The notes under the pieces were generated by a model, which worked only from the letters and a program-made list of their open reading frames with translations, was not told where the DNA came from and ran no database searches. A DNA stretch of 64,000 nt from Kiritimatiellia bacterium (lineage in GTDB: Bacteria; Verrucomicrobiota; Kiritimatiellia; JAAZAB01). Location of the stretch: positions 160,001-224,000 of the forward strand of contig JAXGPF010000010.1 in the NCBI GenBank assembly GCA_040767085.1, written 5' to 3'. A program made the position numbers and the translations under genes. This document shows, in pieces, positions 8,723-64,000 of the stretch (the first letter of the stretch is position 1; every line of letters starts with the position of its first letter).

Positions 8723-8834
8723 GGCATGTCCTGAATAAACATTGACCTGTCAAATGCAGGCATCGTAATATAAACCTCGATAAAAGGTAAATAGCACAAT
8801 TCAACATAAACATGTCATATCTGAACACTGATTG

Positions 8835-9704
8835 ATGAATTATTTTGATGATATAAAAATAATTGCCGGGCGGCACCTGGCCGGCTGCTGCGTGCATGTC
8901 AGAAGTTATTTCCCGCTTTTTTACACTGTTGAATATCTCCATGCCGGCCGGATGTACTGGCGGGTGGACGGCGGGAATCGGATCATCCTGGATCGACCGG
9001 CAGTATTCTGGCACCGCCCGGGCGTGCTCTACGAATACGGGCCGGCGGACGCGGCCGGTTGGGATCATTATTACCTCGTGCTGCGCGGCGCGCGGGCGCG
9101 GCGTCTGGTGGCCGACGGATTTTCAATATTATCCCGCGATGGGTATGTTTTTGCCGCTCAGCCGGCCATCATCCGGGAAATGTTCATGCAACTGATTGCC
9201 ATGGCGCATCAGCTCACGGCGGCCACGCGGGCGGAGGCGGTGATCATGCTGGAGCGGATTTTGCAATTAACTGCTTTCGTTCCCGCCTCCGGCGTGCTTG
9301 GCGCTTACGGTCGGAAAATCATGGAACTGGCCGAACGTATGCGGCGGCAGCCGTTCGCCGTCTATAGCCCCGATGTCCTGGCGCGGGACTTGCATGTCTG
9401 CCTCGGGCATTTCCGGCGATTGTTCCGCCGCCATGCCGGCCGGAGTTTTCACAATTACCTGCTGCACTGCCGGATGCGGCAGGCGGCCGTCTGGCTGGAG
9501 ACGGAAGGGCTGGCAGTGAAAGCGGCAGCCGATCGCGCCGGGTGTGCCGACCAGGCGCAGTTTTCCAAGCTGTTTAAAAAACAGATCGGATTGTCGCCCA
9601 AGCAATACCGGCAGGATGTTTTGATGGGAGCGCCAGGATATGCCGGCCGGCGCGCTGAATCATGCATGCGCGAAATTCGGCAAAACAAAGGCTTGCATGC
9701 CTAG
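8835..9704 (+). CDS. AraC family transcriptional regulator
   Basis: C-terminal double HTH (HFRRLF...FSKLFKKQIGLSPKQYR); divergent from the URO-D gene. Confidence 0.92.
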   Translation: MNYFDDIKIIAGRHLAGCCVHVRSYFPLFYTVEYLHAGRMYWRVDGGNRIILDRPAVFWHRPGVLYEYGPADAAGWDHYYLVLRGARARRLVADGFSILSRDGYVFAAQPAIIREMFMQLIAMAHQLTAATRAEAVIMLERILQLTAFVPASGVLGAYGRKIMELAERMRRQPFAVYSPDVLARDLHVCLGHFRRLFRRHAGRSFHNYLLHCRMRQAAVWLETEGLAVKAAADRAGCADQAQFSKLFKKQIGLSPKQYRQDVLMGAPGYAGRRAESCMREIRQNKGLHA

Positions 9705-58169: not shown

Positions 58170-58246
58170 CGGGGCGTAGCGCAGTCTGGTAGCGCGACAG
58201 CTTTGGGAGCTGTAAGTCGTGGGTTCAAATCCCACCGCCCCGACCA
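58170..58246 (+). tRNA. tRNA-Pro (anticodon TGG)
   Basis: CGGGGCG acceptor stem, ACAGC-TTTGGGA-GCTGT anticodon arm, GGTTCAAATCC T-arm and encoded CCA. Confidence 0.97.
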
Positions 58247-58390
58247 TACTTCGCTCGGAGCTACGTATGGCAAGCCATACTTCGCTCGGAGCGGAGCGAC
58301 GAGCGAAGTATGCCCTACGTAGCACGGCACCGCGCCGGGCGAAGTAGGGCCGACTCGATGGTTCCCGCTCGGAGCTACGTATGGCAAGCC
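58244..58390. repeat. Cluster of palindromic CTTCGCT/GCTACG REP-like repeats
   Basis: CATACTTCGCTCGGAGC x2, CGCTCGGAGCTACGTATGGCAAGCC x2 and a 12-bp perfect stem CATACTTCGCTC/GAGCGAAGTATG. Confidence 0.85.
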
Positions 58391-58407
58391 AGCCTTCTGA
58401 CAGAACC

Positions 58408-58665
58408 ATGCACCATGTCTACCTGCTCAGGAGTCTGGCCGAGCCCAAGCAGACATACATCGGCCTGACGGACGACATGCGGGCGCGGCTGAAGAGCCAC
58501 AATGAGGGTGCCAACTTCCACACCGCCAAGTACCGCCCTTGGGAACTGGTCTGCTGCATTTTGGGCTCCACCAACCGGAGGTACGGTTCAAACGAGCGCC
58601 AGTCACCCCGATCATGCTTCGCTTGGAGCCCTACAAGGGATGAAAGCGAAGCATGCCCTGCGTAG
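58408..58665 (+). pseudogene. GIY-YIG nuclease, C-terminally disrupted
   Basis: HVYLLRS...YIGLT.D..ARL..HN.G...T.KYRPWELV; similarity is lost after about residue 50 and the conserved C-terminal Glu helix is missing. Confidence 0.8.
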
Positions 58666-59401: not shown

Positions 59402-59521
59402 GGATTCTTGTACTTTCTACCCGGTCAACCAAGGAAAACAGAAATACATTGCTTTTTAGTCCGGGAATCGCCTATCATCCGGCGTTGATGGAAAGTCCGG
59501 CCGGGATTACCATGGGGAAAT

Positions 59522-59611
59522 TCCGAACCGACCTGCCGAGCTCAACTGCCGTTCGCCCCGAAACCGAGCTTCCGGTCTCTGTCAGTTGCACTCAACAGTT
59601 CGCCGTTCGCC
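59522..59611 (+). other. attC site (degenerate)
   Basis: R'' TCCGAAC, GAGCTCAACTG/CAGTTGCACTC stem and R' GTTCGCC. Confidence 0.65.
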
Positions 59612-59679
59612 AGACCAGAATGAAGACTGAGAAGGCAAGAGGGAATAGCCGAGCGACGAGAACGGACATGAGGGTCTTC

Positions 59680-60174
59680 ATGTCCCTGCTCGAACTGTAC
59701 GACGTGTGCTTGCTCAATGCTGACGACTTACTGAACGAGGCGCGCTTGCTCCTCAGTCACGGCCATGTTGCCCGCGCGTTCGCGCTTGCCTACACCGGAT
59801 GGGAAGAGGTAGGGAAAGCCCAACTCGTCGGTGACTACGCGAACGACATGGTCTCTGAGGAGGAGTTCGAAGCCGCTTTCAGAGATCACAACCTTAAGTC
59901 CGCATACAACTGGCGACAGTTCGTCTTGAACACCAAAGACATTGGTGCATCGACGATTCAGTATGATCGCGCCCGTGCAAAAGAGGCATTTGAAAAACGA
60001 CAGGCAGCCTTCTACGTGGGAAAGGATGCTCATCTGAAGCCTCTGAAACCCGATGCGGGAGTGACCAAGGAGGAATCTGAAAAGGTGATCCGAGCACTTG
60101 CCTCGGAACTGAAGCAGATCAGGGAGGCGGATGCGTTCACGGAAAGGATCGGTTCAGCCTCGTTTCTGAAATAG
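59680..60174 (+). CDS. AbiV-family (HEPN) abortive infection protein
   Basis: NA..LL.EA.LL...GH.ARAFALA....EEVGKA and F.DH..K motifs; start chosen by RBS (59620 or 59668 also possible). Confidence 0.8.
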   Translation: MSLLELYDVCLLNADDLLNEARLLLSHGHVARAFALAYTGWEEVGKAQLVGDYANDMVSEEEFEAAFRDHNLKSAYNWRQFVLNTKDIGASTIQYDRARAKEAFEKRQAAFYVGKDAHLKPLKPDAGVTKEESEKVIRALASELKQIREADAFTERIGSASFLK

Positions 60175-60177
60175 AAG

Positions 60178-60247
60178 GGCGAACAACGCGTCGCTCCCTA
60201 TTCGCAGTCCGCGCCGGGCTGCTCAAGGGAGAACGCGGACGTTGGGA
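60178..60247 (+). other. attC site
   Basis: R'' GGCGAAC (exact complement of the GTTCGCC that opens this cassette), stems CGCGT/ACGCG, CTCCCT/AGGGAG and GCAGTCC/GGGCTGC, R' GTTGGGA. Confidence 0.85.
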
Positions 60248-60260
60248 GCAAGGGGGCAAT

Positions 60261-60896
60261 ATGACACCGCTTGATTACGACACCGATCAGAACCTGATCA
60301 AGTCATACAACTTCCCGATCATGGTCAAGAGGGCGGTCCAAGAGATGCAGGGCATGGCAGCGGCCATGATTTATGACGGGCGCTTGGATGACGTTGAGAT
60401 CAACCTGATGAGTGACTGGCTCAATCGCCACATCGTGGAGGCCGGTGATTGGCCCCTCTCGGACCTTGTGGCTATTCTCAAGAATGTCCTCGCAGACGGC
60501 GTGGTTACCGAACAGGAAAGACTCAATCTCCTCAACTTTCTCGCCCAGTTCGCCGCTGGCCCCCAACAGCCAGAAGTCATTCAAGGCATTTTCGACTCTG
60601 ACGCAAAGATCATTTTCCCAGGCCAGATGTTCCTGTTCACCGGCAAACTGGTCTTCGGCACACGTAAGAAGGCGGAAAATGCCGTCGTGGCGCGTGGAGG
60701 ATCAATCGCCCCAGCATCGGTTACAGGTGATCTCAACTACCTTGTGGTGGGTGAGCTTGGAAGCGAGGCCTGGAAGTTCAGCCGATTCGGATCAAAGATC
60801 GAAAAGGCTATGCAAATGCGGAAGACCGGCAAAACACATTCTTTCATTGTTCAGGAGAAACGTTTCGTTCAAGCTGTGATCGAAGCAGGAACATGA
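60261..60896 (+). CDS. BRCT-domain protein with helical N-terminal domain
   Basis: FLFTGK..FGTR......ARGG......LNYLVVG...S.AW....FG.KIEKA. Confidence 0.85.
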   Translation: MTPLDYDTDQNLIKSYNFPIMVKRAVQEMQGMAAAMIYDGRLDDVEINLMSDWLNRHIVEAGDWPLSDLVAILKNVLADGVVTEQERLNLLNFLAQFAAGPQQPEVIQGIFDSDAKIIFPGQMFLFTGKLVFGTRKKAENAVVARGGSIAPASVTGDLNYLVVGELGSEAWKFSRFGSKIEKAMQMRKTGKTHSFIVQEKRFVQAVIEAGT

Positions 60897-60899
60897 AGC

Positions 60900-60965
60900 T
60901 TCCAACCAGGCCTTCCTGGCTATCGGCACCCCGGGGTTGCCTCAGCCAGAAGGCTGACATTGGCC
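60900..60965 (+). other. attC site (R' GTT mutated to ATT)
   Basis: R'' TTCCAAC, GCCTTCCTGGCT/AGCCAGAAGGC stem with one extrahelical base, GGCACCCC/GGGGTTGCC loop stem and ATTGGCC. Confidence 0.8.
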
Positions 60966-60996
60966 GAGAGTGAAGAGGGCGACCCCAAACGCAAAT

Positions 60997-62058
60997 ATGA
61001 GAGACGCAAAACGAAATGTGATGATCGACATCGTGGGCGACGTACCCGAAAGGTTGCGCCATGTTTTCAAGTTCTACGGCATTCCCACTCTGGCAGAGCG
61101 GTTCGCGTCCCTGCCACAAGTCATCACCACGGCCTTGAGCGTATTGCCCAACGACGGAGTGAAGAAGGCCGATCTTTCGACCTTAGTGCGAAACCGAAGT
61201 GGTTTGTCAGACGTTTTAATCAGAAAACCGGAACTTCTGCAGGCCTATTTGGAAGCGTTCGAAGCTGCACTCACGCAGCTGGAAAAAAACGGGCAGATTA
61301 CGGCATATGGTGATTTTGTTGTCCACCACAAGAGGCAAACTAAACATGGCGAGGATGTCGCGCTACGGGAGATAACGGACACGCCCCCGGAGAGCCCTGA
61401 AGATGTCCGGCGCCCTGAGCCGAACACCGGTCTTCTGCGTAGGTCTTCTAGCCACCTTCCAACCATCCCTAACTTATCCGAAGCTTTGCCCACCGAGCAA
61501 TCACAATTTGCCGAAGTTCCACGCGCCCCTTTGGACGCCGATGCGCAGAAACAACTGGCGATTTTGGCGAACGAGGTAACGGAAGACGCAGCCCCCACAG
61601 CGCCAGAGAATAAACAGCAGCAAACGCCACCATCGCTTGTACCCCCAGACCCTCTGAGCCACTTGAAAACACTGATTGAGAAAGAACTTGGCGTTAGTGT
61701 GCAGAAACGGCTCAATGAAATCTCCCTCTCTGAGATTGTCCCAGGCTGTTCTTGTGACTGCACTCTATCCTTGCAGTCGGCGGGCACAGAATTAGAGATC
61801 AAAGCCGTGTTTCCTCTTGTCATAGATTGCACCATTGAACTTCTCGAGATGGCCGAGGCGGAGCGTCTTTGCAGCAATCTTGGGGTTGCGACTGCTCACG
61901 GAGACCGTGTGGTAATTATTCGCAAGTCCGTTGACTTACGACGGCATGAACCGGCCGAACTCCATGCACTCAGCGCAAAGGTCCTTCAAGAAGTCGTGAA
62001 AGTCGCTAAGGTTATTTACGACGGTGAACGTTTTCGAGACAAATCTCGTACAATGTGA
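60997..62058 (+). CDS. Hypothetical protein: helical N-domain, Pro/Glu-rich linker, alpha/beta C-domain
   Basis: Long ORF directly after attC, overlapping the next gene; start uncertain (60970 GTG or 60997 ATG). Confidence 0.75.
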   Translation: MRDAKRNVMIDIVGDVPERLRHVFKFYGIPTLAERFASLPQVITTALSVLPNDGVKKADLSTLVRNRSGLSDVLIRKPELLQAYLEAFEAALTQLEKNGQITAYGDFVVHHKRQTKHGEDVALREITDTPPESPEDVRRPEPNTGLLRRSSSHLPTIPNLSEALPTEQSQFAEVPRAPLDADAQKQLAILANEVTEDAAPTAPENKQQQTPPSLVPPDPLSHLKTLIEKELGVSVQKRLNEISLSEIVPGCSCDCTLSLQSAGTELEIKAVFPLVIDCTIELLEMAEAERLCSNLGVATAHGDRVVIIRKSVDLRRHEPAELHALSAKVLQEVVKVAKVIYDGERFRDKSRTM

Positions 62059-62539
62059 AGAAACATTGCGGAAGGCAAAAGCCGTCGACCGAATCACGCG
62101 GCTGCTTACGTTAGGCCTATTTTCACGCGAAGCGAAGGTTACCGAGGCCCAACGGGCGTGCTATTCTGCGAAGACCCAACGCGATCAGTTCAATGAGTTT
62201 ACGGCCCACGCTACGAATCTTGACGACCAGTTACTGCAAACCGTCGAATTGCATGGCGTAAGGGTTAGTCGAAATACCTTTGCGGATTTTACGCGGCTTG
62301 GTGCAGAAGGATATCCGGTGGACTGGGAGAGTATCAGACGGTCCGTATTGGAGCGTGACGGTTTTCAGTGTACTGAAGCAGCTGGTAGGTGCGATGGCCC
62401 CCTCCAGATTCACCACATCGTGCCCCTCAGTCGAGGCGGAACGAACCGGCTTGAGAATCTTGTAACACTGTGCCTCTACCACCACTGCACAAAACATGAA
62501 CATTTGAGGGCAAAATACTATGGAAGTCTACGGCGCTGA
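62024..62539 (+). CDS. HNH endonuclease
   Basis: YP.DW..IR..VLERDG..C....C....IHHIVPLSRGGTN..ENL.TLC..HH...H. Confidence 0.9.
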   Translation: MNVFETNLVQCEETLRKAKAVDRITRLLTLGLFSREAKVTEAQRACYSAKTQRDQFNEFTAHATNLDDQLLQTVELHGVRVSRNTFADFTRLGAEGYPVDWESIRRSVLERDGFQCTEAAGRCDGPLQIHHIVPLSRGGTNRLENLVTLCLYHHCTKHEHLRAKYYGSLRR

Positions 62540-64000
62540 CATTGACGGTATCGAAGGACAACTTATCCGCTTTGCCGCCACCAAGGACGAGAACCGGCAA
62601 GGGGTTACACTCCTTGGCCTTGCAAAACAGGTTGTGAGAGAGGGATTCAGTCGCGTCGCCAAGGCAGTTGAGACCTTGGATGGTGATTGGTCGTCGATTC
62701 TCACCGATCAGGGATACACCGTTCAACTGGCTCCACCTGACGTGCCGAAGGTTTCCGCTGGCCTTGATTTGCCGCTCGCAATCATGCTGCTGTACGCAAG
62801 CATACTCCAAAATCTTGACACACTCGCAGATCAAATCACAAAGCTGAATGATGAGGCGGCCAAAGCCACGGACCGGAAAAACGGGGAAGAGATTCGACAT
62901 CGGTTGCTCGACACCATCGAGAATCTTGTTCGGCAGCGGGAGCTGATTCTTAAGTACCGAGAACGCCTTACCGCAAATGATGGCAAGTACCTTCTCATCG
63001 GGACTCTCGACATTTGCACAGGCAATCTTGCGCCCCCACAGTACGGTATATTCGGCATGATCTCCGCCGCGCAACCCGGTTTCACGGTCATCATCCCAGA
63101 GGACTCACGGATTCACGGAGCCGTCATAGGCAAGAGCCGGCCAGACATCCGCGTACATGTTGCCAAAAACCTCCGAGAGGTTTGGTACGTTGTTCTTGGC
63201 GTCAACAGGCCCCGACCAGCCACATACAAGATGTCCGACATTCGCCGCAAACGGCTTTGTCACTACGTCCCGGACTTACGTGCAATCGATGGTGTTGCTC
63301 GTGCTAAGAAGGCAATGGTAGTCGCCCTCGCTGGCGGTCACAACATGCTAATGGTTGGTCCACCCGGACAGGGCAAGACGATGCTGTGCAAGGCTGCGAC
63401 GGACCTGCTGCCGCGCCTTACGCATGTCGAAATGTTTGAGGTGAACAAGGTTTTCAGTGCTGCTGGGGAACTCCGGGCTGATGAAGTAGTGCTTGATAGA
63501 CCATTCCAAACTGCGACGAATGACGCGACAGACAAAGCCATCTTCGGCGGCGGCCACCGTCCGCCGTTGCCGGGCATCGTGTCGCTTGCGCACAATGGCG
63601 TTCTCCTTCTTGATGAAATTAACACCTTCAAATCTCACATCACGCAACAACTCCGAATCACACTAAGCGACCGCATTCAGAAGGTACAGCGACTCGGAGC
63701 CACAATCGAATACCCGTGCAGATTCATCCTCTTTGCCGCAATGAATCCCTGCAAGTGCGGTTGGTATGGACACTTTCATTGCTCCTCATGCAAGGCCATC
63801 TACATCGATCCCGACGTACGCTGTGCCTGTGGCAATAGTAAGCTCCTGCCAAAGTGCCACTGCTCGCGTCGAGATGTATCGGCGTTCCGTGACCGATTGA
63901 GCGGCCCACTACTCCGCCTGCAGGTACTACTTGACAGGATTGATCTTAAAGTGCTGGTCTCTGCATATGACGCCGAATTGGGCACCTATGACACAACGTC
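62520..64000 (+). CDS. Divergent ComM/YifB (Mg-chelatase-related) AAA+ ATPase, partial (runs off the window; absent from the ORF track)
   Basis: Manual translation from ATG 62520 is open to the end: MEVYGADIDGIEG, LAPPDVPKVSAGLDLPLA, AGGHNMLMVGPPGQGKTML, PGIVSLAHNGVLLLDE, AAMNPCKCG and LSGPL..LDRIDL. Confidence 0.88.
   Translation, partial: MEVYGADIDGIEGQLIRFAATKDENRQGVTLLGLAKQVVREGFSRVAKAVETLDGDWSSILTDQGYTVQLAPPDVPKVSAGLDLPLAIMLLYASILQNLDTLADQITKLNDEAAKATDRKNGEEIRHRLLDTIENLVRQRELILKYRERLTANDGKYLLIGTLDICTGNLAPPQYGIFGMISAAQPGFTVIIPEDSRIHGAVIGKSRPDIRVHVAKNLREVWYVVLGVNRPRPATYKMSDIRRKRLCHYVPDLRAIDGVARAKKAMVVALAGGHNMLMVGPPGQGKTMLCKAATDLLPRLTHVEMFEVNKVFSAAGELRADEVVLDRPFQTATNDATDKAIFGGGHRPPLPGIVSLAHNGVLLLDEINTFKSHITQQLRITLSDRIQKVQRLGATIEYPCRFILFAAMNPCKCGWYGHFHCSSCKAIYIDPDVRCACGNSKLLPKCHCSRRDVSAFRDRLSGPLLRLQVLLDRIDLKVLVSAYDAELGTYDTT

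Follow-up and report, generated by a model that had tools for sequence, protein, structure and literature searches.

McrBC joins an AAA+ motor that has an exchangeable reader domain to a nuclease partner, and BrxL, a protein of the BREX systems, is a Lon-like and AAA+ DNA-binding ring that is found inside a defence system. The pairing of an ATPase with a small HNH gene in defence islands is known from Septu, formed by PtuA and the HNH protein PtuB, and from Zorya II, which includes ZorE. In this work we describe three overlapping genes located at the end of a 64,000-nucleotide (nt) stretch of DNA (hereafter the window, i.e., positions 160001–224000 of contig JAXGPF010000010.1, here called C2) from the genome of a Kiritimatiellia bacterium (GCA_040767085.1), whose assembly comprises 4.08 Mb in 28 contigs and is 95% complete. 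These genes encode a putative adaptor, which we refer to as gene A, a predicted HNH nuclease, and an AAA+ ATPase that resembles ComM/YifB. We propose that the trio is a candidate for an undescribed three-component defence system that would act on nucleic acids in a nucleoside triphosphate (NTP)-dependent manner, and that forms part of the accessory cargo of defence islands; our estimate of the probability of this reading is roughly 0.55.

The closest known counterpart of the ATPase is ComM/YifB, with the solved structure from Legionella pneumophila (8rxd/8rxt), with which it shares the Lon-like N-domain, the Mg-chelatase AAA+ domain with its zinc knuckle, and the lid, at 26–27% identity. In contrast with ComM, it is approximately 100 amino acids (aa) longer, it has a helical hairpin and a second zinc site (CxxC...C), and its RxPHH motif is replaced; it also falls below the TIGR00368 cut-off, represents a second copy in the genome, is always preceded by the HNH gene and gene A, and is located in islands. 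The trio would share with McrBC the logic of a ring NTPase motor, a separate nuclease and variable readers that include EVE; nevertheless, its motor belongs to the ComM/chelatase clade and not to that of McrB, the nuclease is of the HNH type instead of a PD-(D/E)xK enzyme such as McrC, the reader is on a third protein together with a chaperone-fold domain, and the ATPase has no McrB or McrC match in PADLOC. The combination of an ATPase and a small HNH gene in defence islands is common to the trio, Septu and Zorya II; however, neither the ATPase nor the HNH protein has a PtuA or PtuB match in PADLOC at E <= 0.01, the ZorAB genes are absent, and a third gene for an adaptor is present. With regard to BrxL, the domain order and the clade are different, there is no BrxL match in PADLOC, and no BREX genes are located nearby. 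Finally, the alpha-beta fold of residues 208–345 of gene A is shared with YbjN and with type III secretion system (T3SS) chaperones with Z-scores of 9–11.4, but in gene A this domain comes after a nucleic-acid-binding module and a long acidic linker in the same protein, and a nuclease and a helicase are encoded next to it. The sequence-only reading, an earlier annotation made from the letters of the window without database searches, knew of no named system with this composition; in agreement with it, there is no model of this kind in PADLOC-DB 2.0, the catalogues covered being those up to 2023, and no description of the trio was found in the literature, in a search that had subscription journals and supplements outside its scope.

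A conserved operon with a patchy distribution

The three genes are on the forward (+) strand. Gene A (61021–62058) encodes a protein of 345 aa; its maximal open reading frame (ORF) starts with a GTG at position 60970 and would give 362 aa, and the ATG at 61021 is the start both in the database gene call and in a homologue that is 62% identical. The HNH gene (62024–62539, 171 aa) overlaps the end of gene A by 35 bp, and the ATPase gene, which occupies positions 62520–64000 of the window, overlaps the HNH gene by 20 bp; ORF analysis thus gives the same two overlaps that had been read from the sequence. Only the first 493 of the 609 residues of the ATPase are encoded in the window, and the gene extends for another 349 nt to C2:224349, i.e., L002:8349 (L002 designates the segment C2:216001–236000, and 56000 has to be added to its coordinates to obtain those of the window). 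The absence of the third gene from the ORF track, also remarked on earlier, is explained simply by its ORF being open at the end of the window; the rest was retrieved from the contig. As a whole, the trio is compact, with 3.4 kb.

The arrangement of these genes was compared in 17 loci, formed by the window, two loci from other genomes and 14 from metagenomes; 16 of them are distinct because L065 duplicates L013. A profile for the HNH protein detected its ORF directly upstream of the ATPase gene in the 17 loci, and in 13 of them the HNH/ATPase overlap is the identical 20 bp. Upstream of the HNH gene, a profile of the C-terminal domain of gene A matched the ORF in 16 of 17 loci, the one left (L060) having no DNA at that position. 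This profile was built with 11 of the loci, and the matches in L053, L054, L056 and L062 (138.6 to 21.7 bits) are independent of it; when it was run against the 24,014 ORFs of at least 80 aa from the genome itself, gene A was the sole match. The conserved synteny by which the sequence-only reading had proposed to check its idea is therefore present, with the order A-HNH-ATPase in all of the 17 loci that have the DNA to show it, and these genes form a conserved, translationally coupled operon.

Among the best 120 database clusters, 115 are 42–100% identical to the ATPase, and their full-length members have approximately 585–609 aa. The clusters that follow are of the canonical type, with 507–511 aa, 32–40% identity and scores of at most 250 bits. 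The long form comes from Sedimentisphaerales, Acidobacteriota, Hydrogenedentes, Thermodesulfovibrionales and Ca. Electronema, and it is present in at least five phyla. Judged by these comparisons, the long-form ATPase is a distinct family with a patchy distribution across phyla. The N-terminal 250 aa gave no match at E <= 1e-10 in 60 relatives (4 from its genus, 28 from its family and 28 from its class), nor at E <= 1e-20 in 400 genomes from its own phylum, which argues against vertical inheritance, a possibility that would have undermined the sequence-only reading. Likewise, the family profile had no match at E <= 1e-120 in 400 genomes from the phylum to which L013 belongs, where three candidates were scored per genome. 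A scan of the genome collection yielded two true members among the 40 loci listed, the others being canonical ComM or other AAA+ proteins, and both of the other reference genomes with the long form also have a canonical-type frame.

Structure of the three proteins

The part of the ATPase encoded in the window matches PF01078 (Mg_chelatase, 197.9 bits) and PF13541 (ChlI) in Pfam, and PF13335 (Mg_chelatase_C) is a precomputed database match, so that the complete architecture ChlI, Mg_chelatase and Mg_chelatase_C is found. The protein is organised in a Lon-like N-domain with a helical-hairpin insert, an AAA+ core with a zinc-ribbon insert, and a Mg_chelatase_C lid. It scores under the curated cut-offs for ComM/YifB (282 versus 362.4 bits for TIGR00368, and 170 versus 530 for NF007365), and it retains intact motifs, i.e., GPPGQGKT (Walker A), VLLLDE (Walker B) and MNPCKCG. 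An AlphaFold2 model of the whole protein has a predicted local distance difference test (pLDDT) value of 85.8 and a predicted template modelling score (pTM) of 0.83, and the structures closest to it are those of L. pneumophila ComM (8rxt/8rxd, TMt 0.83–0.85), followed by MCM proteins; by sequence, ComM is also the closest solved relative (E 2.3e-46).

When 20 long-form proteins were aligned with four canonical ComM proteins, the points at which the family departs from its relatives became apparent. The Lon-like domain contains a block of approximately 57 columns that is missing in all four canonical proteins, and that is modelled as an antiparallel helical hairpin (residues 99–116 and 122–152, pLDDT 82–87). 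The zinc knuckle (C-x-C...C-x-C) holds an insert of approximately 30 residues in which C421, C424 and C435 (CxxC...C) are invariant, and the canonical RPFRxPHHT is changed to RPFQTATNDAT, the family pattern being RPFQxxxN. The ComM-like identity with its Walker motifs, the helical insertion of roughly 50 residues in the N-domain, the extra cysteine cluster inside the zinc finger, and the replacement of RxPHH by QTATN had all been recognised in the sequence-only reading, and each of them is borne out by the Pfam domains, the alignment or the model. Throughout the family there is no variation in Walker A (G280–K286), in Walker B (D365/E366), or at N409 and R473; according to their position, N409 is probably the sensor-1 residue and R473 the arginine finger. 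The residues R45, K77 and R391 show little or no variation in the long-form alignment. According to the cryo-electron microscopy report on ComM (PMC11612176), DNA is contacted by K43, K46 and K64 of the Lon ring and by R328 of Ps1-beta, and R45, K77 and R391 may correspond to these residues by position; this is not a residue-by-residue mapping, because the alignment was made without the L. pneumophila sequence.

The genome has a separate canonical comM gene in contig C24, as the sequence-only reading had anticipated for a repurposed copy; its product has 511 aa with the motifs RPFRTPHHT and NPCPCGY. In a scan of the genome with PF01078 this gene scored 326.4 bits and the island copy 179.1 bits. 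The ATPase of the trio is therefore an added paralogue and not the only comM of the genome; considering also its distribution, this additional copy of ComM has spread horizontally, and it bears two surface insertions that are specific to the family. The assembled gene has an 18-bp in-frame insert that encodes LRLQVL at C2:223908 (window 63908, L002:7908), before the LLDRID/arginine-finger motif. This insert is absent in 19 of 19 aligned relatives and in an orthologue that is 88% identical, and it is also absent in the Logan contigs from all three runs in which the position is covered (X1, X2 and X4), one of which holds 95% of the words of the stretch; for these reasons, the natural gene most likely lacks it.

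The HNH protein matches PF01844 with 32.9 bits (cut-off, 21.4). Its HNH/zinc core is complete, since C116, C123, H130, H131, N141, N145, C150, H153, H154 and H158 are invariant in 26 sequences, and its N-terminal half is helical and family-specific, with a RLLTLG motif. Its homologues form 30 clusters (39–100% identity), 10 of which are on contigs of a size identical to that of a contig with a ComM-like cluster. In PADLOC it shows motif-level matches only, with DpdF (33 bits) and ZorE (at most 20 bits), and in PHROGs it matches generic HNH families only.

By sequence, gene A has almost no relatives. No Pfam, NCBIfam, PADLOC or PHROG match was obtained for it, nor a PADLOC match at 1e-5 for its homologues from seven other loci, and among 1.84 billion representatives there were 3 matches; since sequence searches gave only 2–3 relatives, the family was assembled from synteny. 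The model of the protein (pLDDT 70 overall and 80–90 in the domains) shows a winged helix (residues 14–104), a disordered acidic linker in which an IPDLPE-like motif is conserved, and an alpha/beta C-domain (208–345). For the latter, the top Foldseek match was YbjN (6vu7; E 1.9e-4, TMt 0.59, probability 1.0), and VIA-align gave Z-scores of 11.4 with DR_1245, 10.7 with AmyR and 9–10 with VecA, Spa15 and SicP, over 112–131 aligned residues. The domain fits the alpha-beta-beta-beta-alpha-beta-beta-alpha fold of the solved members of the YbjN/T3SS-chaperone group, so the fold suggested for it in the sequence-only reading is confirmed at the level of structure comparison. In Pfam, none of 13 gene A proteins matched the sequence profiles PF10722 and PF22551 at E <= 0.1, and an ESM Atlas lead pointed to YbjN/TY-Chap1 (0.89).

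The N-domain of gene A resembles the winged helices of the cullin WHB domain, histone H1/H5 and Rpa2 (Z 7.5–9), which is a common fold. Across the loci, the C-domain and the linker motif (consensus IPDLPE) are kept and the N-terminal module varies. A NusA_N module is present in four loci (L055, L057, L059 and L066; 55.7–59.2 bits, E 6e-16 to 7e-15), an EVE module in L013 (27.4 bits), a zinc ribbon with a PCI-type winged helix in L058 and L014, and a winged helix alone in the copy of the window. The fusion of the N-terminal, RNA-polymerase-binding domain of NusA to a chaperone-like domain, seen in one clade, is an unusual use of this domain outside NusA.

The tRNA-Pro island and the possible mobility of the trio

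The trio is located in an island of approximately 7.2 kb (58670–65849) with a G+C content of 0.49–0.56, compared with 0.60–0.67 in the flanks. This stretch has no counterpart in four genomes of the same genus; it is a strain-specific island located after a tRNA-Pro(TGG) gene (58170–58246, + strand) that marks its left edge. The island includes a zinc-ribbon ORF, an AbiV-family abortive-infection gene located two genes upstream of the trio (59449–60174, + strand; PF18728 76.6 bits, TIGR04498 78.6 bits), a BRCT-domain gene, the trio itself, and an ORF of the membrane/winged-helix type. Two sister species have, after the same tRNA-Pro/GIY-YIG site, a HmaA-type helicase instead (1217 aa, HTH-SNF2-NOV_C, 495 bits; L076 in G003:C81 and L078 in G002:C10), to which one of these species adds a PDC-S01 ATPase together with a CBASS-type cyclase (381 bits); in a third sister species, core metabolic genes occupy the site. 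Within this genus, the tRNA-Pro site is a hotspot of defence genes. Elsewhere, the trio is immediately followed by IetA and IetS in a metagenome-assembled genome of Sedimentisphaerales (L013:9032–12511, 242 and 98 bits), and further neighbours are Fic and PIN genes (L059), DUF5615 (L063), and a Y-family polymerase with a Rep ORF2/G2P-like gene (L057); in L014 the trio lies between a Type IV Mrr enzyme (290 bits) and an integrase/primase block. The defence-gene neighbourhood that the sequence-only reading had named as a check is thus seen, in descriptive terms, in AbiV, IetAS, Mrr and the other neighbours.

Several other features of this region were recorded. The gene between AbiV and the trio (60261–60896) encodes a protein of 211 aa whose C-terminal part is BRCT-like (weak matches with LigA/DnaQ-BRCT in NCBIfam), and the same protein matches the phage family phrog_3989, to which no function is assigned (158.9 bits). 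Beside the tRNA-Pro gene there is a small GIY-YIG gene (58381–58665) flanked by GC-rich palindromes at 58245–58312 and 58613–58655 (CATACTTCGC...GCGAAGTATG). The 557-nt non-coding gap that follows the ATPase gene contains an 11-mer, TTTGCTCCCCA, in three tandem copies, with two more copies 190 nt further on (L002:8618–8662 and 8830–8852), and these runs have the look of iterons or operators. A scan with Rfam detected tRNA only, and a scan for promoters and terminators gave counts at or below the shuffle expectation.

The company of the trio in some genomes could also be read in favour of a selfish module of mobile elements, in which the ATPase, the HNH protein as a nickase, and the adaptor would serve the replication, recombination, integration or mobilisation of the element, or would attack its competitors. 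In L014 the trio is 1.4 kb from a D5_N primase, an excisionase-like gene of the helix-turn-helix family HTH_17 and a tyrosine integrase; the Rep ORF2/G2P-like gene of L057 points in the same direction, and ComM itself is a recombination helicase according to its structural report (PMC11612176). Nevertheless, we regard this explanation as unlikely. An integrase or a primase is present in one of six neighbourhoods, and no recombinase was found within the island of this genome. The long-form ATPase was not found at E <= 1e-10 in the 72,556 plasmids of PLSDB or the 50,697 phages of INPHARED, and none of 59 pattern matches in the viral contigs of IMG/VR was confirmed. Furthermore, replication modules do not usually swap EVE or NusA-N readers on a constant scaffold.

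The sequence-only reading had placed an attC site before gene A and considered the three genes as one large integron cassette bounded by attC sites. The shape of the spacers gives this idea some basis. The spacer before gene A contains an imperfect 66-nt palindrome (60901–60966, no strand assigned), attC-like in shape only, that folds into a 62-nt imperfect hairpin of -17.6 kcal/mol (z -2.4, with 4 of 200 shuffles as good), and similar palindromes are located at 60181–60248, after AbiV (z -1.7), and at 59522–59611. The three palindromes, of 66–90 nt, are in consecutive spacers between genes that all have the same direction, and they begin 5–7 nt past the preceding stop codon, as attC sites do. 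However, a consensus scan for RYYYAAC/GTTRRRY found no strict or one-mismatch pair of boxes in any spacer, and the site at 60901 ends with TTCCAAC...ATTGGCC, with ATT in place of the invariant GTT, so none of the sites conforms to the R''/R' consensus. A scan for attC-like hairpins was neither sensitive nor specific, since it missed two sites seen by eye and gave approximately one match per 60–100 kb elsewhere. The closing site with GGCCAAC that had been predicted is missing after the ATPase gene, there is no integron integrase or attI nearby, contigs of four metagenome runs, which are short, contain no joined or excised forms, and in other genomes the trio is found outside cassette arrays. 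The best TIGR02249 match of the genome is a 96-aa C-terminal fragment in contig C23 (100.7 bits versus a cut-off of 265; XerD 75.5 bits), located at C23:307128–307418 (L008:1516–1806) between peptidase-like and methyltransferase-like genes, a lone intI remnant. The cassette framing is unproven, because the boxes do not fit, the closing site is missing and the integrase is only a distant remnant, and we hold it to be doubtful, a little more so than the selfish module.

A putative reader, nuclease and motor

A different role for the same proteins would be that of a toxin-antitoxin or abortive-infection module, in which the HNH protein is a toxin held inert by the chaperone-like domain of gene A, and the AAA+ protein remodels this antitoxin upon a trigger, acting on protein. 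According to PMC9503650, TY-chaperone-fold domains bind peptides, and members of their superfamily also occur in other conflict systems; the match of the C-domain with T3SS chaperones (Z 9–11), the Lon-like character of the N-domain of the ATPase (PF13541), the loss of the RxPHH motif of ComM, and the addiction-type company of PIN, Fic and DUF5615 genes are in line with this idea. Against it, the basic residues taken to correspond to the DNA contacts of the Lon ring and Ps1-beta of ComM are conserved, the best whole-chain structural match of the ATPase is a subunit of the DNA-bound ComM hexamer, and the N-terminal modules of gene A are binders of nucleic acids or RNA polymerase, which makes this explanation more improbable than the two considered above. 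That the trio is a specialised paralogue for DNA repair or recombination, e.g., for fork or branch processing, located in a variable region by chance and without a role in conflict, agrees with the ComM homology and with the use of HNH nucleases in repair, but it is a very remote prospect in view of its absence from 460 related genomes and its patchiness across phyla, the low G+C content, island location and defence neighbours, and a gene A that is modular and evolves so fast that its sequence homologues are just those three.

The reading that we prefer, a three-component defence system, retains the part of the sequence-only proposal in which a ComM paralogue was repurposed in an ATPase-HNH defence system; the paralogue, the synteny and the defence context stand, and the integron framing is not established. 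Several points weigh against it. The case for a defence role is made here from genes, models and genomic context, and we infer the formation of a complex, DNA as the substrate and immunity itself. There are just six independent neighbourhoods with at least 3 kb of flank, so the counts are descriptive and are not enrichment statistics, and members of the family are very scarce among reference genomes, with the genome described here and at least two loci among the matches listed. PADLOC and PHROGs have no family-specific match to gene A or to the ATPase, the latter showing only generic AAA+ matches in PHROGs (at most 22.3 bits) and at most 16.6 bits in PADLOC; a true novelty would look alike. 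The integrase, the excisionase-like helix-turn-helix gene and the primase beside the trio in L014 leave room for a role in the DNA transactions of the element itself, and the NusA-N variants could point to a function linked to transcription and not to immunity. Finally, the exact ATPase allele of this assembly, with its LRLQVL insert, may reflect an error in the assembly or else a rare variant.

If the trio is indeed a defence system, its components could work in the following manner. The ComM-like protein would form an ATP-driven ring that acts on DNA as a translocase or a branch-migration motor, as ComM does, and the HNH protein would be the DNA-cutting effector coupled to this motor. Gene A would be the specificity and regulatory subunit, whose exchangeable N-terminal module finds the target or the trigger, and its C-domain and linker motifs may hold and release the nuclease, dock on the helical arm or the zinc ribbon of the motor, or both. 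The most specific form of this proposal is that the trio represents the first immune system whose motor comes from the ComM/YifB clade, formed by a reader-chaperone, a nuclease and a branch-migration motor, an architecture that is absent from current catalogues, in which the ring helicase is on invading DNA or the intermediates of its replication and recombination and the adaptor sets the target and gates the HNH protein. We put it forward tentatively, as something that falls slightly short of an even chance. According to this specific form, EVE would read modified bases and NusA-N would read RNA polymerase, and the T3SS-chaperone-like domain would gate the HNH nuclease.

The trio is directly testable, since it is compact and has obvious catalytic residues to mutate. 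If it protects, ComM/YifB, so far tied to natural transformation, becomes a new motor clade of ATPase-nuclease immunity. The adaptor would then be a natural case of the swapping of reader domains on a detachable protein, the version with NusA-N would mean that surveillance makes use of RNA polymerase, and a chaperone-fold domain would be placed in the control of a nuclease. These results also bear on the role of the many extra copies of comM that are present in genomes.

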